DNA of 17,612 nt, taken from a virus. The position numbers were made by a program, and so were the translations under genes. This document shows positions 1,739 through 15,926 of this stretch, piece by piece (positions within the stretch are counted from its first letter, which is position 1; each line of letters begins with the position of its first letter). The notes beneath the pieces are model-generated. The model was not told where the DNA came from, did not search any database, and saw only the letters and a list, made by a program, of their open reading frames with translations. The stretch spans positions 64,001 through 81,612 of the IMG/VR virus record IMGVR_UViG_3300033121_002167; one strand, written 5' to 3'.

Positions 1739-2113
1739 TCACGAGATGGGCGTAGTAACGATATCTTTGTACGCAGTATCGGCGTAGGATGCGTACTCTT
1801 TGTCAAGCTCTGTCACTTGATCTATGTCGTGCGTTATGAGACGAACATTGACAGAATCACCTACTACGGTGATGTTAGCATTGTGACCCACTTCTTCTTC
1901 GTACTCAAGCAACGCGTAGAGGAACGGGTTGCGATCTTCTTTCCTCTTGAACGTGTATGTCTTCGTGATCGATCCATCATCGCACTTCTCCCAGCGATTC
2001 ATCGCAACGAGAGGTGCATCAGGTTCACGAGCAGAGATAGGAAGCTTGCCGAACGTCATGGGACGATCAGCCATTTTCATGAACTGCTCGTGAAGCTTTT
2101 GTAGCTGTTTCAT
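1739..2113 (-). CDS. Hypothetical protein, 124 aa.
   Basis: The ATG at 2113-2111 overlaps the TGA of the upstream homing-endonuclease-like gene in an ATGA arrangement. Confidence 0.55.
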   Translation of the reverse strand: MKQLQKLHEQFMKMADRPMTFGKLPISAREPDAPLVAMNRWEKCDDGSITKTYTFKRKEDRNPFLYALLEYEEEVGHNANITVVGDSVNVRLITHDIDQVTELDKEYASYADTAYKDIVTTPIS

Positions 2114-2973
2114 ATGATGTTAAACAAATCCGGATTAAGTCGACCATTTTTCAAAATATTCATACTCTGTAGTTCAGATCTTGACCAAATTACAGAATTG
2201 GGATAATTCATGTGAAACCAATCCCATTTTTGTTTTGCTGATGGCGTCCACATACCTTTTATTTCAACATACGTGTCTGTATACGGACCATCTTTTATGT
2301 AAAGATCAATGATGTACATTGATCTAGATCTTTTTGAAGTTGTCAAAATTTGTGTTTCAAACGCAATTTGCCAATCAAAATCATAACGGCATTTATTAAG
2401 CCAAAGCAACGTTGCATATTCATAACCAGACTGGGATAGCAACCGCTCATTCGTTTTCCAATGAAATATAACGGGTTGATTTTGAATTGTAGAAATAGCT
2501 TTTTTCCGTATCTGTGTAGATTGCATAGGACTGTCAACACCATACCTTCTACGATTAGTAAGTCTAGCTTTTTCTTGCACAACTTTACTTTGAAAAGGAT
2601 TGCTGACTCCGTAGCGTTCCTGACATGTTTGTTTAACACGTTCTTTTACAAGATTTGTACGTTGTGGAAATTCTGTCCCATATTTCTGCAAAGAAGTGCT
2701 TTTACTAGTTTCTTTTACAGATTCTGCTTGAAATGGATTATCAACACCATATTTTTCTTGAAAATTCTTATTCTTTTTCAAAAACAAAACACCACCTGAT
2801 TTTTGTGCCAAATTAGCGCAGTGCAAACTACAAAAATGTTCAGATTTTTTTGCTTGTGATGGAAATTTTTCAACTATTTCACCACAAGTATCACACTTAA
2901 CAACACAAACAATCTTAAATTGTCGTCCATACTTTTTAGGGTTTGGAATTATTCGTGATGACTCAATTAGCAT
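2110..2973 (-). CDS. Putative free-standing homing-endonuclease-like protein, 287 aa. It has an N-terminal zinc ribbon (CDTCGEIV...HFCSLHC), four imperfect ~25-aa repeats carrying a (K/R)YGV(D/S)NPFQ core, and a C-terminal PD-(D/E)xK-like motif (IIDLYIKD...TYVEIKG).
   Basis: The gene is sharply AT-rich relative to its flanks. It has an ATG start with no ribosome-binding site, as is common for phage homing-endonuclease genes, and is ATGA-coupled to the downstream gene. The D-x11-E-x-K pattern embedded in beta-strand-like hydrophobic context fits a PD-(D/E)xK nuclease, and the basic repeats fit DNA-binding modules. The family assignment is not certain. Confidence 0.5.
   Translation of the reverse strand: MLIESSRIIPNPKKYGRQFKIVCVVKCDTCGEIVEKFPSQAKKSEHFCSLHCANLAQKSGGVLFLKKNKNFQEKYGVDNPFQAESVKETSKSTSLQKYGTEFPQRTNLVKERVKQTCQERYGVSNPFQSKVVQEKARLTNRRRYGVDSPMQSTQIRKKAISTIQNQPVIFHWKTNERLLSQSGYEYATLLWLNKCRYDFDWQIAFETQILTTSKRSRSMYIIDLYIKDGPYTDTYVEIKGMWTPSAKQKWDWFHMNYPNSVIWSRSELQSMNILKNGRLNPDLFNII
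2463..2765 (-). repeat. In-frame tandem coding repeats, 4 imperfect copies of ~70-80 nt, encoding the (K/R)YGV(D/S)NPFQ modules of the homing-endonuclease-like protein.
   Basis: Repeated peptide cores KYGVDNPFQ, KYGTEFPQ, RYGVSNPFQ and RYGVDSPMQ. Matching nucleotide repeats occur, for example ttgaaaaggattgctgactccgtagcg around 2590 and ttgaaatggattatcaacaccatattt around 2730. Confidence 0.6.
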
Positions 2974-2982
2974 GTTAATTAA

Positions 2983-3738
2983 CTACAAAATTACAAATCC
3001 ACCAACAATTGCAGACTCAGTAAAACTAGAACCGTGCGTATAAATACGTCTATTTCTATCGATACAACAACTACCACCTTTGTACTTCAGATCGCGCTCG
3101 GTACCAACTCTGTTTGACACAATGACATTTGCTCTTGTGTCTTCAACAAGCTCAACCCAGGCTGAATCTGGGTACCCATAGGCACCGCCCCAGTTCGTCA
3201 GAAGAGCAATCATGTCGACAGAGCCTTTGCTGTAAAATTTCTGCCCAGGCTTGTAAAAAGCGTACGATTCTCTGTAGTGATTCATTGCATCCCTGCAAAC
3301 TAGCGCTCCCAGCCGACCGACTGGCGTCACGACTAGTGCATGAAGGGCTTCTGAGGGCTGCGCCCAAATGTTGTCATTACCCCATAGGTTGCTTTTCTGC
3401 GAATTCCCTGCGAGGCCCGAGGGACCCACGATGGCCGCTGAGTTGTACAGCTTACCTTCATAGAGCTCCGGGTAGCCAAAGACAATGTAGCAGTTGTAAC
3501 GATTGGCAATTGGGATGAACGCTTCTGTCTGATACCCATCACGTTCCTGAGCACACTCCATTGCTTCACGAGGAGATCGCAACGCAAACCCAGAAGTGCA
3601 AAGCTCAGGCAGAACGATGACACGGGCACCTTTCGCCGCGGCTTCGAAAGCTAGTTCAGTAGCAACAGCCAGATTCTTCTGGACGTTGAGCAGCTCTGGG
3701 TTGAACTGCGCCGCGGCAACTATTGCTACGTCGTTCAT
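2983..3738 (-). CDS. Carbon-nitrogen hydrolase (nitrilase superfamily) protein, 251 aa.
   Basis: The catalytic triad context matches the family: VIVLPE (Glu), GKLYNSAAIV (Lys) and GALVCRDAMN (Cys nucleophile). It has the expected alpha-beta-beta-alpha length and the expected N-terminal strand VAIVAAAQFNP. Confidence 0.7.
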   Translation of the reverse strand: MNDVAIVAAAQFNPELLNVQKNLAVATELAFEAAAKGARVIVLPELCTSGFALRSPREAMECAQERDGYQTEAFIPIANRYNCYIVFGYPELYEGKLYNSAAIVGPSGLAGNSQKSNLWGNDNIWAQPSEALHALVVTPVGRLGALVCRDAMNHYRESYAFYKPGQKFYSKGSVDMIALLTNWGGAYGYPDSAWVELVEDTRANVIVSNRVGTERDLKYKGGSCCIDRNRRIYTHGSSFTESAIVGGFVIL

Positions 3739-5407: not shown

Positions 5408-5730
5408 AATTCGCCCTTGGGAGCTTCTGCTTGCGAGATGTTAGGATTGCCAAGCTTCGCGTCCGTCCACTTCCTACCGAAGTAAAGAGCAAGGATCGGA
5501 GAGAAGTAGCTGGCGCATGCAGCAACATCGAATGGACGGACATGAATGGGACCAAGCGTCTCAAACATGGAGAGCACGTAAGCCAACGTTGTAACCCAAA
5601 ACGATACGAAGACAAGAGTGACAGTGACGCTTCCGTAACCACGACTGTCACGAATCCAAATTCTTGATGGCGAGACTTCACTAGGATCATTAGATGGTGG
5701 CAAATTTTCATTTGCTGTATTGTCAGACAT
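5200..5730 (-). CDS. Small membrane protein with two predicted transmembrane helices (VTVTLVFVSFWVTTLAYVLSMF and FDVAACASYFSPILALYFG).
   Basis: I place the start at the ATG at 5730-5728 (MSDNTANENL...), which has GAGG 7-8 nt upstream. The track start at 5742 is a second in-frame ATG. The last ~70 codons run out of frame across the start of the 583-aa gene and look like overprinted, non-native sequence, so the true C-terminus is uncertain. Confidence 0.45.
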   Translation of the reverse strand: MSDNTANENLPPSNDPSEVSPSRIWIRDSRGYGSVTVTLVFVSFWVTTLAYVLSMFETLGPIHVRPFDVAACASYFSPILALYFGRKWTDAKLGNPNISQAEAPKGELWHKRSLSPGQHCASLYQSFLITRSSGKFALKRWMILLMSTQLLISQQYLLILAIRTTSQTTKLNFKLL

Positions 5731-6514
5731 GTTCAACCTCATTATTTTCAGATATTTCTTGTCGATGTTTTTTCCACCACAATTTCATTGTTTCGCTATG
5801 TGATTTCCGAAAATCAACATTTTCCCAACGTTCGCAAGCTGATTTTCGTCTCTGCTCAGCTAGTTCTGATTTTTCATATGATCGTTTAACGCCGGCACTA
5901 ATTCGCTTTCGAACATTTTCATCTTGACGTGATTTTTTAGACGCCTCCGTCAAATGAAGCAAGTGTTCAGATGAAACACGTCGACCACTCAATTTTCTAG
6001 AAATACGTTCGCGAACTTCAGGAGTTCGTGAAGCTTTGCTTGAAGCACTCAATTTTTGACGCGTTTGTTTTGAAACAACACGGTTACTTGCAACATCAGA
6101 AAGATGTTGACGAACACCTGGTTTGTTCATACCAATACGGGTACGTTCAGAAATAATTTTGCGAATTTCGCTACTCGGATTTGAAATTCCTTCGCCCCCA
6201 ATCGTTTTGTTACATCTGATGTCATCTAGCGACAAACGAAACGAAGGATTGAATGTATCAAGTTCTTTTATCAGATAAATTTCATAATCAAAAGCTTGAT
6301 TTTCGTCCAGTGTTTCAAAAACAATTTCTCTTCTCAATCCCAAATGATGAGAAACAAATTTGTGATGCTTGTTACGACGTTTGTTTTTAACACGAGAAGA
6401 ATTTCCTTTTCCAACATAAAACGCGCGAGGTTCAATTTCAGTTGTGTAATCGACATACACATACCACTTAGACTGAACCTCAGTTGGATCAGCGGCTTTC
6501 TTCTCTTCTTCCAT
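5723..6514 (-). CDS. GIY-YIG homing endonuclease with C-terminal NUMOD3-like repeats (Seg-like, free-standing), about 264 aa.
   Basis: KWYVYVDYTTEIEPRAFYVGKG gives GIY-x10-YIG. The conserved Arg/His (RVKNKRRNKHH), Glu (FDYEIYLIKEL) and Asn (TFNP) are present. At least five repeats of the NUMOD3 type occur (SEIRKIISERT, TRQKLSASS, PEVRERISRKLSG, ENVRKRISAGVKRS, SHSETMKLWWKKH). The gene is strongly AT-rich. The track ORF starts at a GTG at 6628, giving a spurious Cys/Trp-rich extension. The real start is most likely the ATG at 6514-6512, which has GAGG 9 nt upstream. Confidence 0.85.
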   Translation of the reverse strand: MEEEKKAADPTEVQSKWYVYVDYTTEIEPRAFYVGKGNSSRVKNKRRNKHHKFVSHHLGLRREIVFETLDENQAFDYEIYLIKELDTFNPSFRLSLDDIRCNKTIGGEGISNPSSEIRKIISERTRIGMNKPGVRQHLSDVASNRVVSKQTRQKLSASSKASRTPEVRERISRKLSGRRVSSEHLLHLTEASKKSRQDENVRKRISAGVKRSYEKSELAEQRRKSACERWENVDFRKSHSETMKLWWKKHRQEISENNEVEHV

Positions 6515-6549
6515 GTCGACAACCTCTGGTCCTAAATAGGCTGTACAGA
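5723..6549 (-). mobile_element. AT-rich homing-endonuclease island inserted between a membrane-protein gene and the coiled-coil/secreted protein gene.
   Basis: Composition drops to AT-rich exactly over the endonuclease ORF, with GC-normal flanks. Confidence 0.55.
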
Positions 6550-7044
6550 TCATTTGGTCGCATGCGATAGAGCAAAAACGGTGAGCACGGTGAAAACGGC
6601 GCCGCCAGCAAAACCACCAGCAGCCCACAGCATGGGATTGCTAGAGCTAGATGATTGCTTTCGAATCTCTTCGTTTAGCGCAGCAATCTCTTTTTCTTTT
6701 GCAACGATTGATGCACTTAGGATCTTCTTCTCAGCGTCAGTCGTCGCTTGAAGTTCTACGAGCTTGAACTGCGACTGTGCGGCAGCTTCAGCTTTCGCCT
6801 TGTCAACTTCGATCTTCACTTGATCTTTGGAAGAATTTAGCTGCACGATGATGCTTGCAACAGCTTTTGGCGATAGCAAAACACCGGTGTAAGGTGCTGG
6901 CTCACCCTTTTTCATAGGAGTCGTCACAGCACCAGGATCTGGTTCAGCAGATGGAACTGCTGGCACAGTCAACCCTTCGCATCGACCAGGGATTGCTGAA
7001 AAGAAGAACGTCAGAAACGTTACTAGCGTGATGAACTTTTTCAC
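6550..7044 (-). CDS. Secreted or membrane-anchored coiled-coil protein, 164 aa. It has an N-terminal signal-like hydrophobic segment (KKFITLVTFLTFFFSAIPGRC), a central coiled coil and a C-terminal transmembrane helix (MLWAAGGFAGGAVFTVLTVFAL). It may be a spanin-like lysis component.
   Basis: The start is a GTG at 7044-7042 with GGTGG 3 nt upstream, overlapping the TGA of the upstream gene as GTGA. There is no in-frame ATG until far downstream. The topology resembles unimolecular or outer-membrane spanins, but the lipobox is not canonical (PGRC). Confidence 0.5.
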   Translation of the reverse strand: MKKFITLVTFLTFFFSAIPGRCEGLTVPAVPSAEPDPGAVTTPMKKGEPAPYTGVLLSPKAVASIIVQLNSSKDQVKIEVDKAKAEAAAQSQFKLVELQATTDAEKKILSASIVAKEKEIAALNEEIRKQSSSSSNPMLWAAGGFAGGAVFTVLTVFALSHATK

Positions 7045-9311: not shown

Positions 9312-9609
9312 GATCTTTTCCTTGTAAGCTTAGCTCGTAATTCTTTTCAAGTTCTTCTGCATCAATCAGGAATTTTTCACCCTCTGGCGTCCTGAGTATG
9401 CAATCGTTAGGACCGACTGAATCCACTGTGTAGCGAATTCCACTGTTCTTGTGAAGAACTTTCAGCTCTGGAGCGATGATCATCTTCTCTTCTCCTTTGC
9501 CGATCTTTGCAGTCATCGCAACGTCGACGGTCTCCGTTAGAGACGCAACACGTGAGTCCCACTCTTCACGGAAGACTTCTATGATGTCCTTATCAGTAAG
9601 TGCTCTCAT
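9274..9609 (-). CDS. Hypothetical protein, 111 aa.
   Basis: The ATG at 9609-9607 overlaps the TGA of the dCMP deaminase gene (ATGA). It overlaps the next gene by 38 nt. Confidence 0.5.
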   Translation of the reverse strand: MRALTDKDIIEVFREEWDSRVASLTETVDVAMTAKIGKGEEKMIIAPELKVLHKNSGIRYTVDSVGPNDCILRTPEGEKFLIDAEELEKNYELSLQGKDHEQKEHTRRSRP

Positions 9610-10043
9610 GTTCTCGATGTAAGTATTGTGTCCGATGTTCTCATGACTTCAATACCAACTGATTGCAGCAAGACAAGACCTGACGAATCCCTGTACTGGA
9701 TGTCATACACGACCCTAGAGATTCCAGCGTTGATGATCATCTTGGCACACATCCGACACGGTGAATGAGTCACGTACATGTGCTTCTTCTTCGGAAAGTT
9801 ATAATCGAGCTTGATTATAGCGTTAGCCTCAGCATGCAAGAAACCGCTAAGACCAGGTTCGCTCGATTCTTTCTCGTGAGGTCCACCCTTGTAGTTCCCG
9901 TTGTACCCAATCGAGAGCATCTGCGTGTTATCGTCAGAAACGACGATCGCTCCCACTTTGAGAGCATCGTCGTACGATCTAAGAGAGATCGTCTTTGCTA
10001 CTGACATCCACGTTTCAGGCCACGGAACAGCGTTGTTGGTCAT
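9606..10043 (-). CDS. cd: Deoxycytidylate (dCMP) deaminase, zinc-dependent cytidine/dCMP deaminase family.
   Basis: HAEANAI (the zinc His plus catalytic Glu) and SPCRMCAKMIINAGI (the PCxxC zinc ligands). The track start at 10076 is TTG. I chose the ATG at 10043-10041, which overlaps the thymidine kinase TGA as ATGA (MTNNAVPWPETW...). Confidence 0.85.
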   Translation of the reverse strand: MTNNAVPWPETWMSVAKTISLRSYDDALKVGAIVVSDDNTQMLSIGYNGNYKGGPHEKESSEPGLSGFLHAEANAIIKLDYNFPKKKHMYVTHSPCRMCAKMIINAGISRVVYDIQYRDSSGLVLLQSVGIEVMRTSDTILTSRT

Positions 10044-10609
10044 GTTAGCACTATGAAAGGATGACATCGCAAGCAACGCGGCTCGTATAGCTCGTGCCCG
10101 CCAACTTCAAGCAACGTTTCATCTTCGCTCTTCTTGTACGTAAAATGAGCATCTTGCGAGCAGATCGTGCACACTGCTGAGCACTTCTCTATTGACGTTG
10201 CCCAAGGCAACATCTTTGTCACTTCATCGAACGGTTTGCCGTTGAATGCAGTGTCAAGCGTTGACACTATGATGTTGTATCCGTTCCTGTACAAGAACGT
10301 CAAAGCATCAGCAACGCCGTTGATCATGAAAGCTTCATCTACTGCGATGATGCTAATGTCGTTGTTCTGCTCTTCAAGAACTTTCGCAAGGATACCTTCT
10401 GCGTTATTGACAGTGACTGCATCGTGACGCCAACCGCCGTGCGTCACGATCTGAGACGTAGAGTAGCGATCATCTATCGCAGGCTTGAAAACTAGAGCGT
10501 TTCTCTTCTGGTACTTGCAACGCTCAAGCTCCATCAACAATCGAGATGATTTTGATGACCACATGGGTCCGACGTACATCACGAATGTTGGATTAGCTTG
10601 CTTGCTCAT
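10040..10609 (-). CDS. tk: Thymidine kinase (type II, Tdk-like), 189 aa.
   Basis: P-loop YVGPMWSSKSS, Walker B/acceptor region AVDEAFMI, and the C-terminal zinc motif CSAVCTICS...CLRCH. ATG start. Confidence 0.9.
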   Translation of the reverse strand: MSKQANPTFVMYVGPMWSSKSSRLLMELERCKYQKRNALVFKPAIDDRYSTSQIVTHGGWRHDAVTVNNAEGILAKVLEEQNNDISIIAVDEAFMINGVADALTFLYRNGYNIIVSTLDTAFNGKPFDEVTKMLPWATSIEKCSAVCTICSQDAHFTYKKSEDETLLEVGGHELYEPRCLRCHPFIVLT

Positions 10610-10628
10610 GATCGCTACTCTAACCGGT

Positions 10629-11186
10629 CTAGAGCGCTAGTAATCCGACAACGACAAGCGTGTCGAACGGAGGAGCGCACCCGGCATTCTCTTCTGCGGC
10701 AGCCTTGAGAGAATCCAGAACTCTCTTCTTCGCCGGCCCCACGCCCTTCGAAGCCTTCAATGCACCCAACGCTGCAGGGGATCCAGAGCCAACAGAAGCG
10801 TAACCACGAGCACTCTCAACGAGCTGGAAGTTTCCCTCGAGCTCGTGCAGCTCACCCCTGTATGCAATGAGTAGCGCACCGTGGAAGTAGTGCTGACCAC
10901 GATGCTCCTCAGTACAATCAAACTTCTTCAAACCTTCGCGGATCGCAGGTACCCACTTGCTGACAAGATAGTCCTTCGCAGAACCGCTCTCGTGCGGCGG
11001 GAATTCGATGCCATGCTTGATAGCATCCATGACCTTAGGCAACCCGCAAACACCAACGCCGATGCCGTTCTTCAAGAAGATCTTCGGATGCTTCAAGAGA
11101 ACCCTGTCTAGACCGCCACCAGTTGCTGCACGATCACCACCGAGCCAAACGTTCTTTCCCTCAACGACGCCAACAATAACAGTCAT
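10629..11186 (-). CDS. HslV/proteasome beta-subunit-like N-terminal nucleophile peptidase, 185 aa.
   Basis: It starts MTVIVGVVEGKNVWLGGDRAATGG, compared with HslV [24 protein letters not shown], so Thr is at position 2 and would be the Thr1 nucleophile after Met removal. A Lys in HPKIF sits at the HslV Lys33-like position. The Gly-rich GVGVCG and YASVGSGSPAALGALKA match the HslV GSGG region. There is a strong ribosome-binding site, AAGGAG. Confidence 0.65.
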   Translation of the reverse strand: MTVIVGVVEGKNVWLGGDRAATGGGLDRVLLKHPKIFLKNGIGVGVCGLPKVMDAIKHGIEFPPHESGSAKDYLVSKWVPAIREGLKKFDCTEEHRGQHYFHGALLIAYRGELHELEGNFQLVESARGYASVGSGSPAALGALKASKGVGPAKKRVLDSLKAAAEENAGCAPPFDTLVVVGLLAL

Positions 11187-11362
11187 TTTCCATTCTCCTT
11201 TTCTTCTTTGTAGTTCACTTCAGTCTGCCAGGCTACTTTTATGAGCTCAACCACTTGATCAATGCTCAACCCGAGCATCTCACCGAGCTCAACGACGCTT
11301 CTTACTGCTACCTCGAACATCTTCTCAATCGATGGTAGCTGATCTCCTTTTTGCTTTGCCAT
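11183..11362 (-). CDS. Small hypothetical protein, about 59 aa (MAKQKGDQLPSIEKMFEVAVRSVVELGEMLGLSIDQVVELIKVAWQ...).
   Basis: The ATG at 11362-11360 lies immediately after the TAG of the hydroxymethylase gene. A longer version from the ATG at 11413 would overlap by 50 nt. Weak support. Confidence 0.35.
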   Translation of the reverse strand: MAKQKGDQLPSIEKMFEVAVRSVVELGEMLGLSIDQVVELIKVAWQTEVNYKEEKENGK

Positions 11363-11363
11363 G

Positions 11364-12023
11364 CTATTCAACCAAGTGCCAATGCTTTTGGTATACGTGC
11401 AAAGAACCAGCATGCCAAATCATGGGACCAACTTTGACGCCCAGATCGTGAGCAAGCTGCTTGTGAACGTAGTCTTGCCAGACGCGGTCGTTGCGATATC
11501 CATACAAGACATCGTTCGACCTCATGCGAACGTCAGCAACCAGCTCTCCATTTCTGACGAAGTACTGGACTGAATCAGTACAGATGAAGTCGCTCATCCC
11601 GCTACGGTTGTAATCTTTCCAGATCGAAGGACGCGTGTACACCATCTCTGCGCGGCGGCTTTCTGGAGCTCGACGAAGTTCAGCTAGAACGTTGCTGTAC
11701 TGATCGTGATTCTCAGGGCTCCAGATAAGATAACCATAGTTCGAGTTGATCTCACCGTTAGGTGTAGCGCATGCAACCCAAGCAGCAGGTGCACCGCCAG
11801 GGATATCATGAACGTTAAGAGACATAGACTTGTACCACTCGATCTCCCTAGCTGCGTAGTCCCTGTTCACGGTCCCAAAGATAGCTTCTTCATCCGCAAT
11901 GAACGTTGCACCTATGACCTCAATCATCTTGCAACCTGTTTTGTCGGTCACGTGCTCGCCGGATGCTTTTAGCTCACGGAACCAACTCCGAACATCGCTG
12001 ACTCTATGCTCAATTCGTATCAT
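11364..12023 (-). CDS. Deoxycytidylate 5-hydroxymethylase (T4 gp42-like, thymidylate-synthase fold), 219 aa.
   Basis: Blocks match T4 gp42 as I remember it: DKTGCKMIEVIGATFIADEE, REIEWYKSMSL, GEINSNYGYLIWS, ESRRAEMVYTRPSI, GMSDFICTDSVQYF (Cys nucleophile) and MRSNDVLYGYRNDRVWQDYV. The Asp in the RND motif, where thymidylate synthase has Asn, is the cytosine-specificity determinant. The C-terminal HAGSLHVYQKH matches the TS/CH GDAHIY region. Confidence 0.85.
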   Translation of the reverse strand: MIRIEHRVSDVRSWFRELKASGEHVTDKTGCKMIEVIGATFIADEEAIFGTVNRDYAAREIEWYKSMSLNVHDIPGGAPAAWVACATPNGEINSNYGYLIWSPENHDQYSNVLAELRRAPESRRAEMVYTRPSIWKDYNRSGMSDFICTDSVQYFVRNGELVADVRMRSNDVLYGYRNDRVWQDYVHKQLAHDLGVKVGPMIWHAGSLHVYQKHWHLVE

Positions 12024-12174
12024 TCGTCTTCATCTCCAGGTCCAGCACCTTGTCTTCTAGCGTTTGAATTCTCACCTTCATCTCATTGTGTGCCCTAATG
12101 TCAACGATCGACAGAACGATCGTGAACAGCAACAGCACCCATAGCATGAAGTGGACGTGATGATCTGATTTCAT
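12010..12174 (-). CDS. Unlisted small membrane protein, 54 aa (MKSDHHVHFMLWVLLLFTIVLSIVDIRAHNEMKVRIQTLEDKVLDLEMKTNDTN).
   Basis: It is not in the ORF track because it is under 60 aa. The ATG at 12174-12172 overlaps the epimerase TGA as TGATG. It has one clear transmembrane helix followed by a charged helix. It ends 14 nt inside the hydroxymethylase start and fills an otherwise 150-nt gap in a gapless operon. Confidence 0.45.
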   Translation of the reverse strand: MKSDHHVHFMLWVLLLFTIVLSIVDIRAHNEMKVRIQTLEDKVLDLEMKTNDTN

Positions 12175-13142
12175 CAGACGTTAAGCTTTAGGTTCTTTGC
12201 CCAGTCCCAATTGTTGTCGTACCAATCGCATGTGCGAGCGATACCTTCCCAAACAGGAACTTTTACGCTGTACGCAAGGTAAACTGATGCACCGCTGATG
12301 TTTGCTAGCGTTCGCTTCACATCACCTGCCCGTGTGGGCGCAACGTTGAGCTTGAACCCGCCGTAACGCTTCAGAAGGTAAAGAATGATGTCGTTGTTGG
12401 ATACTTCAGTTCCACATGCTACGTTGAATCGATGCGCTTCAGCAGATGGAAGCTGCGCTGTTGCGGCCTTCATGCATGCATCAACAACGTTGTCAACGTA
12501 ACACAAGTCTCTTGATTGAGAGCCGTCACCATCGAAGCGAAGCGGTTCACCCTTCTTGATAGCCGTCAACCACGCGGCGAGCGCAGTTGCGTACGGAGAA
12601 CCACCCAGCGCGTTGGGTCCAAAGACGTTGAAGAACCTCAAGGAGACAGAATCTAGACCGTAGAACGTCTTGTACAACGTCAAGTAATCTTCGATGATAG
12701 ATTTCTGAAGCGCGTACGGCGACTTGGGATTCTTCTCTTCGCTCTCATGCGTGGGTAGCTTAAGAGCGCCGCCGTACACTGAAGAAGATGAAGCAAAGAC
12801 GAACCGTGTGATGTTTCCTCTGCATGCTTCCAGCAACTTCAGCGTCTTCGTGACGTTTGCATCGTTCGTTTCAAACGGATGCTCCACAGAGTACGAAACT
12901 CTTGGAACAGCAGCAAGATGGATGACAACGTCAAACTCTTTGTCCCTGATCTTCTGAAGAACTGCTTCATCAGAAAAATCACACTTAAATTCACGAATTT
13001 CTCGAAGAGTTGAATCGCTCAAAAATTCTGCGTGCCCATTAGAAAAATCATCAGCACCAGTAACTGTCCAACCAGCAGCTACGCATGCTGCTGTCAAATT
13101 TGAACCAATGAACCCTGCGTAGCCAGTTATGAGGACTTTCAT
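12174..13142 (-). CDS. NAD-dependent nucleotide-sugar epimerase/dehydratase (extended SDR, UDP-glucose 4-epimerase-like), 322 aa.
   Basis: Rossmann motif VLITGYAGFIGSNL, the catalytic YALQK (YxxxK), and the Ser-rich ASSSSVYGG upstream of it. The length and domain order are typical of GalE/WbpP-like enzymes. Confidence 0.85.
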   Translation of the reverse strand: MKVLITGYAGFIGSNLTAACVAAGWTVTGADDFSNGHAEFLSDSTLREIREFKCDFSDEAVLQKIRDKEFDVVIHLAAVPRVSYSVEHPFETNDANVTKTLKLLEACRGNITRFVFASSSSVYGGALKLPTHESEEKNPKSPYALQKSIIEDYLTLYKTFYGLDSVSLRFFNVFGPNALGGSPYATALAAWLTAIKKGEPLRFDGDGSQSRDLCYVDNVVDACMKAATAQLPSAEAHRFNVACGTEVSNNDIILYLLKRYGGFKLNVAPTRAGDVKRTLANISGASVYLAYSVKVPVWEGIARTCDWYDNNWDWAKNLKLNV

Positions 13143-13226
13143 GTCTAGGTAAGACTATACCCACCTACAGGGCTAATGTACAGCGTGTTAGTCGACGTTG
13201 CAGAGCAAGTTCATCTTCCGCATTGC

Positions 13227-13469
13227 TTAAAGCGTCGTCACCTCGTAAGAGCACCGAGCTCTAACAGCATCACGGAGACGTTCACGAAGATCATTCATGT
13301 CGACGGTGTGAGTTCTCAGCTCGCTGAACTCATCGAGCAACTTGCTCAACACGTCTGGTGCATCAGAAAAGTCTGGCGAGCCCATGAAAGGGTGCCCTCC
13401 TGCATCTCGAGCCAGCTTAGAATATTCGAAATAATTGGTCAATGAGATACCGGTATATATTTCCCGCAA
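13227..13469 (-). pseudogene. Remnant of the native 3' end of the glycosyltransferase gene, displaced by the homing-endonuclease cassette.
   Basis: This ORF has a TTG start and a stop codon immediately upstream. Its translation REIYTGISLTNYFEYSKLARDAGGHPFMGSPDFSD...RCSYEVTTL aligns over its full length with the C-terminus of the 446-aa glycosyltransferase (RECTELGCVPLTLNCNEYARLLKLSSFPIYCNPDFSD...RCSYEETTL). The remnant is GC-rich like the host genome, whereas the glycosyltransferase's current 3' end is AT-rich like the endonuclease. Confidence 0.6.
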
Positions 13470-14205
13470 TTATTCCCTTAACTTGGCTAATACGAAGATC
13501 GTATTTCTTGGCAAGATCTTTTTGAGTATACAATCCAGTTTGATAATCACTTCTAAGATCATTTACTGTCGCTCGTAGATGATCATTTCTTTTGATTCTA
13601 GCTGCGGCTATTTTTTGTTTAACTTCAACTCTTTGTTGAACTTCTTTTTGCTTTATGGAAGCTTTCAATCTAAATTCATCACTTCTGAAGATTTCTCGCA
13701 AGTTCTCGATTCGTTGTTTTGCTTTTTCTTCATCACTAGCCCAATTTTTCTTAAGTGATGAAGAAATACGCTGTTTGGTTTCTTCTGTTTGATGACCACG
13801 CAATTTTCTTACTTTGCTTTTCATCTTAAGTCTAAAACTAGGATCCTTCCACAATGCTTTAAATCGATCACTTATCAATTTTTTCTGGTGTGCTGTAATA
13901 CCACGCACGCCCTCGCCACCAGAAGTAAGATTTAGCAACATTACGCCACTTTTCTTAAGAGACGAGATGGTTTCAATTTCGTGTGCGTATGAATCTTCTT
14001 CATTACTAGTGTGATAAACACACTTAAATTCAAACGCGTCTAGACCATAAGTTCGCATGTTCGCATACAAATGACTTCTACCCCTAAATTGACCCGTAGA
14101 ACCAAAATAACGATGTATTCGCCAGCGACAAGCTAGATCATTAGTTTTTCCGACATAAACTTCTGACGTAATCGTATTTGTAATAGTGTATACAAAGAAT
14201 CCCAT
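13417..14205 (-). CDS. GIY-YIG homing endonuclease with NUMOD3 motifs (Seg/I-TevI-like, free-standing), 262 aa.
   Basis: GFFVYTITNTITSEVYVGKT gives GIY-x9-YVG. Also present are RWRIH, YAHEIETISS (Glu) and LLNLTSGG (Asn). NUMOD3-type repeats include HQTEETKQRISSSLKKNW, the consensus GxxHSEETKxKIS. It is strongly AT-rich, has an ATG start and no ribosome-binding site. Confidence 0.9.
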   Translation of the reverse strand: MGFFVYTITNTITSEVYVGKTNDLACRWRIHRYFGSTGQFRGRSHLYANMRTYGLDAFEFKCVYHTSNEEDSYAHEIETISSLKKSGVMLLNLTSGGEGVRGITAHQKKLISDRFKALWKDPSFRLKMKSKVRKLRGHQTEETKQRISSSLKKNWASDEEKAKQRIENLREIFRSDEFRLKASIKQKEVQQRVEVKQKIAAARIKRNDHLRATVNDLRSDYQTGLYTQKDLAKKYDLRISQVKGIIAGNIYRYLIDQLFRIF

Positions 14206-14460
14206 GATCTAACTATAGTGGCACACATACTTTTACAATAGATCCATACGTTTCATCGAACTCAACGTTGTTTCTTCGTATGAACATCTTTGTTGAACGA
14301 CTGTTTTCAGTCTTTCATGTGACTTTTTACAATCATCAGTGCCAACATAATCGATCAGATCGCTAGCTTTATCAACAATGTCAGAAAAATCAGGATTGCA
14401 ATAAATTGGAAATGATGACAATTTAAGCAATCTTGCATATTCATTACAGTTCAATGTCAA
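13417..14460 (-). mobile_element. Homing-endonuclease cassette: the endonuclease gene plus a co-transferred AT-rich replacement 3' end of the glycosyltransferase gene.
   Basis: A contiguous AT-rich block of about 1 kb covers the glycosyltransferase's last ~75 codons and the endonuclease gene. The displaced GC-rich native 3' end lies just downstream at 13227..13469. Confidence 0.6.
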
Positions 14461-15564
14461 TGGAACACATCCCAATTCTGTGCATTCTCTAGCAGCCGTT
14501 CCGCCGTACGTGTCCTGATCGTACAACCCAACAGATATCTCAGCTCTGGAAGCGATGTACTTGAATTCATCCCTGTTAAGCGGGCCAGAGACAAGAGACA
14601 TGTAGCCGTGACGGCCGCAGCGATCTTGCAAGCTAGAATTAGAGATTTTCTGGCTGGGATTTCCAGCTATGACAATAAAGTCTTGGCGACGATTGTGAAG
14701 CTTTGGCAAGATGTCAAACATGAACTTGCCGCAGTTCGTGTAGTCGCTAGACACCCCTGCTTCACCGATACGGTTCGGGACAAAGATGATCTTCTTGCCA
14801 GCTGATTGCAGCTTCTCGACCAGGTTGACATCAAACCTAAGATTGTCGAAATTGACCGGCGATGTGATCTCTTCTCGAGAGTACCCATCATCCCACGGTG
14901 AAGACTTTTCGAGGATCTTTTGGACAACTTCATCTCTGTAAAGCTTCCTGGCTTCAACTTCAAACTCTGCCAACGCAGATTCACACTGCCAGAAGTTCCA
15001 ATCGGCTTTCATCGCTGCTTCGCATTGACCGAGCCACAGCGATGCTTCAGCTGGAAACTTTGGACATGATGGCACATCCACGAAGTGGGAATGTACGAAA
15101 AACTTGGGTTGGTATCCACCAACAACATGGAACATCGCCTTGAAAGCTCTTAGATGCATTGGATCGTTGATGTAGACTGCATCCCACTTGGGTGCTCGGC
15201 TCAACTTCTGCATCCCGAGATTTAGACCGACAGCTAGACCCGTCCAGTCAAAATCATAACGAGTCACAAGAGCATTTCCGATGATGTTGTGCTCAAAGAA
15301 CGCTAGACGATTGTCGCCGTCTGCGCCGTAACGCTCCCAAAGATCTGGGTATACATCCCAAGGATCAGTTACAACTTGTCTCTTTCTGCCGTCATCACCA
15401 AGCTGTGGGATCATCACTGTGATGTGCAACTCTGGGTTCAGCTGAAGCATCACCCTTACGCGACCCATGACCATCTGAAAGCCCGAATCTGCTTCCAAGA
15501 TGAAGTTTCCCTTCGTGTCATAATTTGACAACTGTGTCTCTATCAAAAGCCGTTTTTGTCCCAT
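14233..15564 (-). CDS. GT-B fold glycosyltransferase (GT4-like C-terminal domain), about 443 aa. It is a candidate DNA hmC glycosyltransferase.
   Basis: The C-terminal region YDQDTYGGTAARECTELGCVPL matches the GT-B/GT4 E-x7-E nucleotide-sugar-binding region (…EAMACGCPVI). The track start at 15573 is TTG. The real ATG is at 15564-15562 (MGQKRLL...) with AAGGA 11 nt upstream. The last ~75 codons are AT-rich and have been allele-replaced. Confidence 0.6.
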   Translation of the reverse strand: MGQKRLLIETQLSNYDTKGNFILEADSGFQMVMGRVRVMLQLNPELHITVMIPQLGDDGRKRQVVTDPWDVYPDLWERYGADGDNRLAFFEHNIIGNALVTRYDFDWTGLAVGLNLGMQKLSRAPKWDAVYINDPMHLRAFKAMFHVVGGYQPKFFVHSHFVDVPSCPKFPAEASLWLGQCEAAMKADWNFWQCESALAEFEVEARKLYRDEVVQKILEKSSPWDDGYSREEITSPVNFDNLRFDVNLVEKLQSAGKKIIFVPNRIGEAGVSSDYTNCGKFMFDILPKLHNRRQDFIVIAGNPSQKISNSSLQDRCGRHGYMSLVSGPLNRDEFKYIASRAEISVGLYDQDTYGGTAARECTELGCVPLTLNCNEYARLLKLSSFPIYCNPDFSDIVDKASDLIDYVGTDDCKKSHERLKTVVQQRCSYEETTLSSMKRMDLL

Positions 15565-15569
15565 TATAA

Positions 15570-15926
15570 TCAATGTCCTTTTCTGCCCGGATTGCTCTGC
15601 TTTCTGTACTCTTGGTGTTCTGCGTCGCAGTGAGCCTTGGCTTGATCGAACATCCGACCAACCATTGACTTCAACAGATTCTCACCATAATCAGAAGCAA
15701 TCTCTTCTCTGATTTGATCAACAGTATGTTGAACGCATGCTTCACGATCGTACGAACCATCTAGTTCATCAAAAGTCCATGACGCTGGAGCCTTAATCCT
15801 TGTTGAAGCACGACCGGTCTTGAAGAATATGTGCCCATTTGTCCATCCTATCGACTCGGGAACGCACTCTTCGCGGCCATCGAGCATAGCATAATGCAGC
15901 TCGATCCAAATTTTGCTTCTGCTCAT
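15570..15926 (-). CDS. Hypothetical protein, 118 aa.
   Basis: ATG start overlapping the upstream TGA (ATGA). No recognisable motif. Confidence 0.55.
   Translation of the reverse strand: MSRSKIWIELHYAMLDGREECVPESIGWTNGHIFFKTGRASTRIKAPASWTFDELDGSYDREACVQHTVDQIREEIASDYGENLLKSMVGRMFDQAKAHCDAEHQEYRKQSNPGRKGH

Follow-up and report, generated by a model that had tools for sequence, protein, structure and literature searches.

How can a selfish endonuclease gene live inside a conserved gene and leave that gene whole, with neither an intron nor an intein to remove it? We addressed this question in a 17,612-nucleotide (nt) stretch of viral DNA (positions 64,001 to 81,612 of IMG/VR record IMGVR_UViG_3300033121_002167; hereafter, the window), in which the 3′ end of a glycosyltransferase gene is followed by a GIY-YIG homing endonuclease gene and then by a second version of the same gene end. 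The original prediction, made from the letters of the window, was that the endonuclease had brought a foreign gene end with it and had left the recipient's original end downstream. This proved essentially right: endonuclease-free alleles exist, and comparison of the window with the allele that encodes protein P0007 gives 98% protein identity for the glycosyltransferase body, ~41% for the in-frame tail and 92% for the downstream remnant. We consider it highly likely that the region is a composite mobile cassette placed inside the glycosyltransferase gene and made up of a foreign, putatively cleavage-resistant replacement for the last 69 codons, a short spacer and the GIY-YIG gene. All features of this locus lie on the minus strand of the window, so that higher coordinates are upstream.

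Anatomy of the cassette

Alignment of the empty-site allele L138 to the window defines the boundaries of the element. The two match up to ~14459 and the match resumes at 13427; between empty and occupied alleles, the sequence is native to 14467, converted from 14466 to 14443, inserted from 14442 to 13428 and native again from 13427. The native body of the glycosyltransferase gene (14467..15573) comprises codons 1-369 of a 446-codon open reading frame (ORF) in the window's ORF list (14233..15573). This ORF is opened by TTG at 15573; the proteins of relatives are called from MGQKRLL, and the ATG at 15564 is the likely start. The body is followed by a conversion tract of 24 nt (14443..14466), where alignment with L001, L002 and L138 reveals foreign GTTCCATTGACATTGAACTGTAAT (VPLTLNCN) in place of native ATACCTTTTTGGATTTCTTGTAAT (IPFWISCN). 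The inserted element itself (13428..14442; 1,015 nt) enters at TGTAAT^GAATAT, between codons N377 and E378. Its 5′ part is the foreign replacement tail (14233..14442), which runs in frame with the native body for 69 codons (E378-L446) to a TAA stop (14235..14233) that ends the glycosyltransferase ORF. A spacer of 27 nt (14206..14232) separates this stop from the start of the endonuclease gene (13417..14205), a free-standing ORF of 262 amino acids (aa) in a frame other than that of the glycosyltransferase. The last three codons and TAA stop of the endonuclease gene (13428..13417) lie nearly all in native-derived sequence, and native L138 has the identical GAATATTCTAAG.

Base composition follows these borders. 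The guanine-plus-cytosine (GC) content drops from ~0.50 to ~0.35 between roughly 14460 and 13420, with values of 0.49 for the body, 0.34 for the tail and 0.37 for the endonuclease region, which agrees with the predicted contrast between an AT-rich tail and endonuclease gene and a GC-normal body. The predicted extent of the foreign tail, 14233 to about 14460, requires a small correction: the tail is foreign, but foreign sequence starts at 14466. Homing with co-conversion of the gene end had also been proposed. Co-conversion in the strict sense spans only the 24 nt from 14466 to 14443, and the 69-codon tail is instead part of the inserted unit.

The foreign tail is ~41% identical to the native tail and keeps the invariant and near-invariant residues of the family, and comparison between its variants gives a ratio of nonsynonymous to synonymous substitution rates (dN/dS) of 0.12-0.40. 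At the nucleotide level, the foreign tail and the native site agree at 12 of 24 positions both upstream and downstream of the insertion point, as counted from the aligned sequences. The best match to the foreign tail reaches 49% among the native tails of 120 family proteins, 47% among 115 more loci and 45% among 1.84 billion representatives. One candidate from the search for a tail donor, P0250, was rejected as low-complexity noise. Within the spacer, the motif CTATAGTTAGAT (14218..14207) is kept 5′ of the GIY-YIG start in three lineages (the window and L003, L011, and L013) whose enzymes are only 53-55% identical, and the motif might act as a promoter, a signal for translation or a site of autoregulation. 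Scans for sigma-70 promoters and terminators around the cassette returned counts no higher than those for shuffled sequence.

Downstream of the endonuclease gene, the stranded native 3′ end of the glycosyltransferase gene occupies 13188..13427 (79 codons plus the native stop, 13190..13188). A profile of family tails matches the window twice on the minus strand, once at the in-frame tail (76.7 bits) and once at the remnant (85.5 bits; E=1.2e-25; profile positions 1-72), where homology begins at 13427 with GAATAT, encoding Glu-Tyr. The remnant had been predicted to be the 80-codon ORF 13227..13469, colinear with the glycosyltransferase C-terminus. That ORF does align with the C-terminus (41% identity over 69 aa, E=1e-10) and the remnant is real, but the resemblance of the first 13 residues ('REIYTGISLTNYF' versus 'RECTELGCVPLTLNCN') is due to chance because these residues are an out-of-frame translation of the endonuclease gene's 3′ end. 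At its other end, the TAA at 13229..13227 is a premature stop, and homology goes on for 13 codons beyond it to the native stop. Direct colinear comparison with the live native allele of L138 finds 4 differences in 240 nt, of which two are synonymous, one is missense and one is a nonsense change, Ser67>stop. Apart from the window, this TAA is shared only by L137, a 100%-identical copy; all other relatives compared have TCA. Across occupied alleles, remnants and the live native allele are 98-100% identical, with 0-5 differences in 240 nt, and the insertions are therefore young.

Two side observations concern such gene ends. In L007 and L014-L017, the remnant carries an 8-nt insertion (ATGAGCAC) near the native stop, which shifts the frame so that the remnant ORF runs into the epimerase start; this may be either decay or a native variant, and no empty-site allele of this sub-lineage was found among the relatives. 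The search of 1.84 billion representatives also returned P0253, a free-standing 84-aa ORF consisting of a glycosyltransferase tail only (MPLSIRMYEYKSILES...RCSYEDTTKNKMKKIGLL), which may be a stranded gene end in another lineage.

Empty and occupied alleles reveal a mobile unit

Presence of the cassette is polymorphic at a fixed site, and the empty site is intact. Empty sites are found in L001 and L002 (the contigs of P0007), L138, L139 and L019-L021, and occupied sites in the window, L003, L005-L007, L014-L018, L022, L137, L141 and L011/L012. The endonuclease-free allele that the original prediction proposed to look for, in which the glycosyltransferase runs directly into the GC-rich end, is that of L001, L002, L138 and L139; there, the epimerase gene follows the glycosyltransferase gene after a spacer of ~45 nt. 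P0007 is 88% identical overall to the window's glycosyltransferase, and its C-terminus is nearly identical to the window's downstream remnant. L138 and L139 provide empty sites in a near-identical background, in which the thymidylate-synthase-like protein is identical to that of the window. L137 is occupied and 100% identical to the window over 12,249 nt.

Inspection of occupied alleles indicates that the cassette and its flanks have different histories. The cassette is 1,015 nt long in all GIY-YIG alleles. Between L007 and L014, the cassette is 100.0% identical over its 1,015 nt, in contrast to 88.7% for the remnant, 85.0% for the epimerase gene and 95.2% for the gene body. Comparison of the window with L003 gives the opposite relation, where the cassette is 93.2% identical and the remnant, epimerase gene and gene body are 98.9%, 97.5% and 97.4% identical, respectively. 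The cassette moves between genomic backgrounds, and flanking markers are co-converted with it. A downstream marker, AAGTTGG (versus AAGCTGG), travels with the endonuclease subtype P0241. Over ~1.4 kb of the gene body, L010 matches the window at every position, and the identity breaks off abruptly at the conversion tract.

Upstream junctions fall into two classes that are uncoupled from endonuclease subtype. In the short class, with 24 nt of conversion, are the window, L007 and L015-L017, and the crossover lies somewhere between -33 and -24. In the long class (L003-L006, L014 and L008-L010), the sequence is foreign from ~63 nt further upstream (window 14527), including a 6-nt insertion. Nearly one background therefore holds four allelic states: empty, GIY-YIG with a short tract (the window), GIY-YIG with a long tract, and a fourth that carries an unrelated DUF7487 endonuclease. 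More than one allele is present in each of the samples SRR32380191, SRR29748438, SRR29748427, SRR29927283 and SRR31968662. The locus had been described as a single event caught in a clean state. Both gene ends are indeed readable, but the occupied allele recurs in populations, as a polymorphism of a composite cassette that is old and also occurs in a second phage lineage.

The GIY-YIG gene is under purifying selection

The adjacent gene had been labelled a GIY-YIG endonuclease, and profile searches confirm the assignment. The 262-aa protein matches Pfam PF01541 (E=4.3e-7; 30.6 bits against a cutoff of 22.6 bits) as well as PHROG 314, 7168 and 5123, all annotated 'homing endonuclease' (E=5e-26 for PHROG 314). 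Conserved motifs of the catalytic domain are present at the N-terminus, where residues 5-32 (VYTITN...VYVGKT...RWRIH) align with I-TevI in structure 1mk0 (IYQIKN...VYVGSA...RWKRH). The endonuclease gene has a dN/dS of 0.15-0.19 and is under purifying selection; the corresponding range for the epimerase gene is 0.04-0.08. In one relative, L022 (IMGVR_UViG_3300033069_001798), the endonuclease has 100% protein identity to that of the window, and an extra G at ~4975 (AGGGGT to AGGGGGT) shifts the frame at ~codon 42, which reflects either a true inactivation or a homopolymer sequencing error.

An unrelated endonuclease shares the foreign tail

The fourth allelic state combines the same foreign tail with a different enzyme. 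In L008-L010 and L140, the long-tract type of tail overlaps, by ATGA, the gene of an unrelated 335-aa DUF7487 protein (PF24308, E=5e-21; PHROG 3339 and 12131, 'homing endonuclease'), some relatives of which bear the JGI name very-short-patch-repair (Vsr) endonuclease. On these matches, and given its variable presence beside conserved genes, the DUF7487/Vsr-like protein qualifies as a free-standing homing endonuclease and a putative nuclease. The full locus (L140) was found by way of the thymidylate-synthase-like protein; the same look-up with the window epimerase found nothing. For the DUF7487 endonuclease, an IMG/VR search found nothing, the protein collection held no full-length close homologue, and no solved structure matched by sequence.

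The remnant that follows the DUF7487 gene in L140 starts at CTAGAGAATGC (RECTELGCIPFWISCNEYSKL), 50 nt upstream of GAATAT, and its last 240 nt, beginning with the Glu-Tyr codons and ending with the native stop, match L138 at 100% identity. In window coordinates, the DUF7487 insertion point is 14493|14492. The 26 positions from there to the conversion tract (14467..14492) hold native-type sequence, CTAGAGAATGCACAGAATTGGGATGT, that is intact in the window, in contrast to long-tract alleles, where the insertion point lies in foreign sequence.

In L003 (5051..5962, minus strand), and also in L004, L022, L138 and L141, the glycosyltransferase gene is immediately preceded by a further DUF7487 endonuclease gene (303 aa, opposite strand). 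This gene does not occur in the window, and the relatives that have it carry endonuclease genes on both sides of the glycosyltransferase gene.

The insertion site and the wider glycosyltransferase family

To place the locus in its family, 115 further loci of the glycosyltransferase family from IMG/VR and JGI metagenomes were screened. Tail duplication proved to be restricted to L011/L012 and the window clade, of which the 140-kb viral contig L022 is a member. In at least eight other lineages, the glycosyltransferase gene has a DUF7487 gene directly 3′ of it and no remnant. Taking one value per lineage, the GC content of the tail minus that of the body is -0.02 to -0.15 in 10 lineages with an adjacent endonuclease gene, in contrast to a mean of 0.001 (sd 0.032) in 67 other loci (Mann-Whitney p=1.3e-6). 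The glycosyltransferase tail generally seems to travel with an endonuclease gene, and a GC drop at the 3′ end predicted an adjacent endonuclease gene here. Only one locus, L116 (Ga0068871_100072669; tail 2205..2408), has a strong tail GC drop (-0.11) and no endonuclease gene detected; its contig ends ~400 nt past the gene, and an endonuclease gene may have been cut off.

When 90 distinct native sequences are compared, nucleotides are highly conserved between positions -75 and +6, counted from the Glu codon, and conservation collapses immediately beyond. The last conserved block (YGGTAARECxELGCxPLW..EY) has both insertion points at its 3′ edge, and E378 and Y379 are invariant in the family. Insertion at invariant codons is what would be expected of a homing target. 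Because conservation collapses past the insertion site, only a short and variable tail has to be carried.

A second phage lineage carries the same arrangement

The same arrangement was found in L011/L012, which belong to an AT-rich phage; its glycosyltransferase body and that of the window are 68% identical. A GIY-YIG gene 55% identical to the window's interrupts the gene at the same codon, and the remnant again begins at the Glu-Tyr codons. Comparison of L011 with P0019, whose loci L019-L021 are endonuclease-free, gives 99% identity for the body, ~39% for the in-frame tail and 86% for the remnant. Homology at the DNA level among the window, L003, L011 and, in part, L013 covers the tail end, the motif CTATAGTTAGAT and the sequence on the endonuclease side of the GAATAT junction. 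The cassette tails of the window and L011 are only 39% identical, no closer than either is to native tails, and their common descent is not supported.

L013, from a GC-rich lineage, has a 53%-identical enzyme between its glycosyltransferase and epimerase genes. TGAATAT and a degenerate vestige of ~25 nt are left before the epimerase gene, and the persistence of this vestige is consistent with L013 once having had a remnant and having lost it later. Decay of remnants ranges from the premature stop in the window to near-complete loss in L013. Some endonuclease copies also show signs of decay (start codon ATG>ATA in L011 and the +1 G in L022), which fits the usual cycle of invasion, fixation and degeneration. 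Two samples, SRR29748438 and SRR29748427, both hold the L011-type AT-rich phage (L011/L012) as well as window-clade phages (L142/L143). Carriers of two diverged GIY-YIG cassettes thus share samples and could therefore exchange DNA.

Proposed mechanism and alternative explanations

To account for these alleles, we propose that the cassette homes during mixed infection. The endonuclease would cut empty-site alleles at or just upstream of TGTAAT^GAATAT, and double-strand-break repair would copy the cassette, with upstream homology supplied by the gene body and downstream homology by the epimerase gene together with the stranded native end, as the anatomy implies. The recipient would gain a chimeric and complete glycosyltransferase, and its own 3′ end would become an untranslated remnant. 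The foreign tail would have two jobs in this scheme. First, it would keep the host gene whole without an intron or intein. Second, because it is only ~50% identical to the native site at the nucleotide level, it should make the carrier resistant to cleavage and keep the endonuclease gene from being lost by recombination between tail and remnant. The cassette was probably founded when illegitimate recombination fused the endonuclease gene, at its end, with a broken native gene at GAATATTCTA, and because the junction is homologous in two distant lineages, this join most likely occurred once, long ago. I-TevI cleaves at an offset of 23-25 nt from its insertion site. The shortest conversion tract here, 24 nt, would be compatible with an I-TevI-like offset, although this parallel is speculative.

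The case for a composite cassette draws on what is observed of its anatomy, empty sites and mobility, of selection on the endonuclease, of recurrence in a second lineage and of remnant decay. Several points nevertheless weigh against it. We infer cleavage, the target site and the resistance of the foreign tail from sequence, and some endonuclease copies look inactive, namely those of L022 and L011. Part of the pattern could reflect inheritance and ordinary recombination in place of many separate homing events, because just two upstream junction classes are seen and no continuum. Some of the mosaicism could likewise come from strain mixing in assembly because every relative is a metagenomic assembly. 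The donor of the foreign tail appears to lie outside the sampled sequences, given best identities of 45-49%, and the one tail common to the GIY-YIG and DUF7487 cassettes is compatible with either cassette having come first.

Of the alternatives, passive mosaicism survives best, though we regard it as improbable. It would make the AT-rich block a recombination module swapped among related phages, with the endonuclease gene as an inert passenger that does not drive the spread. Phage genomes of this clade are mosaic everywhere, and the two junction classes and the disabled-looking endonuclease copies would be at home in such a scheme. Module swapping does not, however, sit well with a block that always has the same length and the same downstream junction, that is 100% identical in backgrounds only 85-95% identical, and that enters at invariant codons as a homing target would. 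Nor would an inert passenger be expected to show purifying selection or to be tracked by a low-GC tail across 10 lineages.

Very unlikely, in our judgment, is repeated de novo formation, in which an intergenic free-standing endonuclease such as that of L013 would have homed each time and the break would have been sealed by microhomology at GAATATTCTA, with no composite cassette using the remnant as an arm. L013 does have a related endonuclease between the glycosyltransferase and epimerase genes, essentially without a remnant, and the last 10 nt of the endonuclease gene coincide with native sequence. Against this, the downstream junction is identical in at least 13 occupied window-clade loci and is homologous in L011 over ~20 nt on the endonuclease side, downstream markers (AAGTTGG versus AAGCTGG) go with the endonuclease subtype, and the vestige in L013 suggests that a remnant was formerly present there.

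The probability that both tails belong to one expression unit, as ancestral tandem domains or as pieces joined by RNA or protein splicing, is close to nil. Two readable tails in the same orientation, each colinear with the family C-terminus, are what this idea has to offer. The original prediction had named tandem domains in relatives and intron-like splicing as findings that would overturn it, and neither was borne out: ~90 distinct family loci have a single tail, and a scan of the whole window against Rfam gave one chance-level snoRNA match and no intron family at E<=1. In addition, the in-frame tail has its own stop and the 27-nt spacer then leads to an endonuclease ORF that is distinct and in another frame, a join of 14467 to 13427 would remove 8 conserved codons, and the window remnant contains a nonsense codon. 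A group I intron was accordingly rejected, as there is no ribozyme match and the empty allele shows replacement and duplication in place of clean exon junctions; an intein was rejected as well, since the host ORF terminates at 14235..14233, the endonuclease is encoded apart from it and the Pfam search found no Hint/intein domain. An assembly artefact, in which AT-rich and GC-normal phages would have been fused into a chimeric contig, is equally negligible even though the relatives are metagenomic assemblies, for the same architecture recurs in at least 14 independent assemblies from varied samples and sources (Logan, ENA, JGI/IMG-VR), among them the 140-kb contig L022 and L137, with its 12,249 identical nt.

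Returning to the composite cassette, we would generalize from it only tentatively, and lean slightly against the wider claim. A spare gene end could be a general third route, beside introns and inteins, into conserved phage genes, with the tail acting as a portable immunity module that is inherited or stolen between GIY-YIG and DUF7487 enzymes as they succeed one another at sites 50 nt apart. If this were true, the short-tract allele of the window would be immune to the GIY-YIG enzyme and open to the DUF7487 enzyme, and long-tract alleles would be immune to both. The four allelic states, with their defined junctions and predicted target and immunity sequences, make up a directly testable system.

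Relation to known systems

Free-standing endonucleases of phage T4 (SegF, SegG, SegB, MobE and others) carry out intronless homing, in which double-strand-break repair co-converts flanking markers. The present locus resembles them in having a free-standing GIY-YIG gene by a conserved gene, co-conversion and variable presence among close relatives. In contrast, the T4 endonuclease genes are intergenic and their co-conversion replaces flanks without duplication, whereas here the insertion is within the gene, a spare end is carried and the native end is left as a remnant. Phage genes can also be split by endonuclease genes, as in nrdA of Aeromonas phage Aeh1 with mobE and T4 genes 39/60 with mobA. 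These cases share with ours an endonuclease gene within a conserved gene, the lack of an intron or intein and the retention of host function. They differ in that both of their pieces are expressed and assembled; the downstream piece here is decaying, and it is redundant because the element supplies a substitute. Endonucleases of group I introns and inteins, such as I-TevI, likewise colonise a conserved site without killing the gene, and the N-terminal GIY-YIG motifs align. Here, however, there is no ribozyme and no protein-splicing domain, and neutrality is achieved by replacement of the gene end.

The closest parallel is provided by the 'gene hybrids' formed with mORFs in fungal mitochondria, which include atp6 of Allomyces macrogynus, atp6/atp9/cox2/nad3 of Glomus sp., atp9 of Rhizopus and cox2 of Mortierella (PMC3630166). 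According to the summary given in PMC3630166, the first to be described was that of Allomyces macrogynus atp6 (Paquin, Laforest & Lang 1994). Beside GIY-YIG or LAGLIDADG ORFs, atp6 and cob have also been reported with duplicated C-termini (PMC6279837). In both the mORF hybrids and the window, a native body leads into a foreign in-frame C-terminus, then an endonuclease ORF and then the displaced native C*-terminus (PMC3630166). In both, too, the native C* is near to the gene of a sister taxon, the inserted C-terminus is divergent and a close relative has an empty-site allele. The closeness to an intact sister gene amounts here to 4 differences in 240 nt between the window and L138 and to none for L140.

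The resemblance does not extend to residence in fungal mitochondria. The window is from a phage, as indicated by genes for DNA polymerase III alpha, a thymidylate-synthase-like protein, thymidine kinase and deoxycytidine monophosphate (dCMP) deaminase, by IMG/VR viral contigs of at least 140 kb and by bacterial-type gene packing. The cassette works like an mORF hybrid but in another host realm. The affected gene encodes a glycosyltransferase in a bacteriophage genome, in contrast to the respiratory-chain genes of the mitochondrial cases, some of which have the endonuclease in phase with the host gene; here it is a separate ORF after a stop and spacer. A further difference is that four allelic states coexist in one background, with two unrelated endonuclease families on one foreign tail and insertion points 50 nt apart.

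Endonuclease genes are known to lie at boundaries of genetic exchange in phages (PMC10448857). Full-text literature searches, of incomplete coverage, found no phage case of a carried spare gene end with a stranded native end. The principle is already known, and the phage setting, the population-level resolution and the use of one tail by two endonuclease families are new, as is the family-wide association of a low-GC tail with a neighbouring endonuclease gene. The locus links two separate literatures, those of fungal mitochondrial mORF hybrids and of phage intronless homing, and natural phage populations show at single-nucleotide resolution a selfish endonuclease living in a conserved, apparently important gene by bringing a substitute part. 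There are consequences for annotation as well, since a short ORF of normal GC content that follows an AT-rich endonuclease gene can be a stranded gene end, and chimeric gene tails distort phylogenies and protein clustering.

The glycosyltransferase and its genomic neighbourhood

At the sequence level, the 446-aa protein has no Pfam or PHROG match; hundreds of full-length homologues exist in metagenomes. An AlphaFold2 model built from 35 homologues has a predicted local distance difference test (pLDDT) score of 92.4 and a predicted template-modeling (pTM) score of 0.90. Foldseek matches this model at probability 1.00 and template-modeling (TM) scores of 0.55-0.64 to GlgM, glycogen synthase, sucrose-phosphate synthase, BshA, MshA and OtsA, and the model has the two Rossmann-like domains that match solved GT-B enzymes. 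The label of glycosyltransferase, already attached to the gene in the original prediction, is justified at the level of the predicted fold, as GT-B (GT4-like), because a confident model matches GT-B enzymes at probability 1.0. The native downstream neighbour (12174..13142, minus strand) encodes a nicotinamide adenine dinucleotide (NAD)-dependent sugar epimerase/dehydratase (Pfam PF01370, E=7e-53).

Two other endonuclease islands were noted in the window, and no duplicated end of a neighbouring gene was found at either. One is a second free-standing endonuclease gene (2110..2973, minus strand; 287 aa; DUF7487 PF24308, E=3e-21; PHROG 3339, 'homing endonuclease'), which forms an AT-rich island (GC 0.30-0.38) between the genes for a carbon-nitrogen hydrolase (2983..3738) and a pterin-4a-carbinolamine dehydratase (1739..2113). 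The other is an endonuclease-like ORF (5723..6628, minus strand; 301 aa from GTG; PHROG 314, E=4e-8) with GIY-YIG-like motifs (WYVYVDY...FYVGKGN) in an AT-rich island of GC 0.38-0.41. L139 seems to be without this ORF, as its gene table leaves a gap of ~340 nt between the 164-aa and 583-aa genes, compared with ~1.1 kb in the window.

INPHARED phages were searched by DNA and by protein with no match to the window, so there is no cultured relative or deposited annotation with which to compare it. Contigs that carry this glycosyltransferase family reach 140-370 kb. In the window (9606..13142 and 14233..15573), L001 and L137, the GT-B glycosyltransferase and sugar epimerase/dehydratase occur together with a divergent thymidylate-synthase-like protein (219 aa), thymidine kinase and dCMP deaminase, and in relatives DNA polymerase III alpha is also found in this neighbourhood. 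Contig size and gene content together suggest that these phages form a large uncultured group that modifies nucleotides or DNA, possibly by glycosylation of bases.

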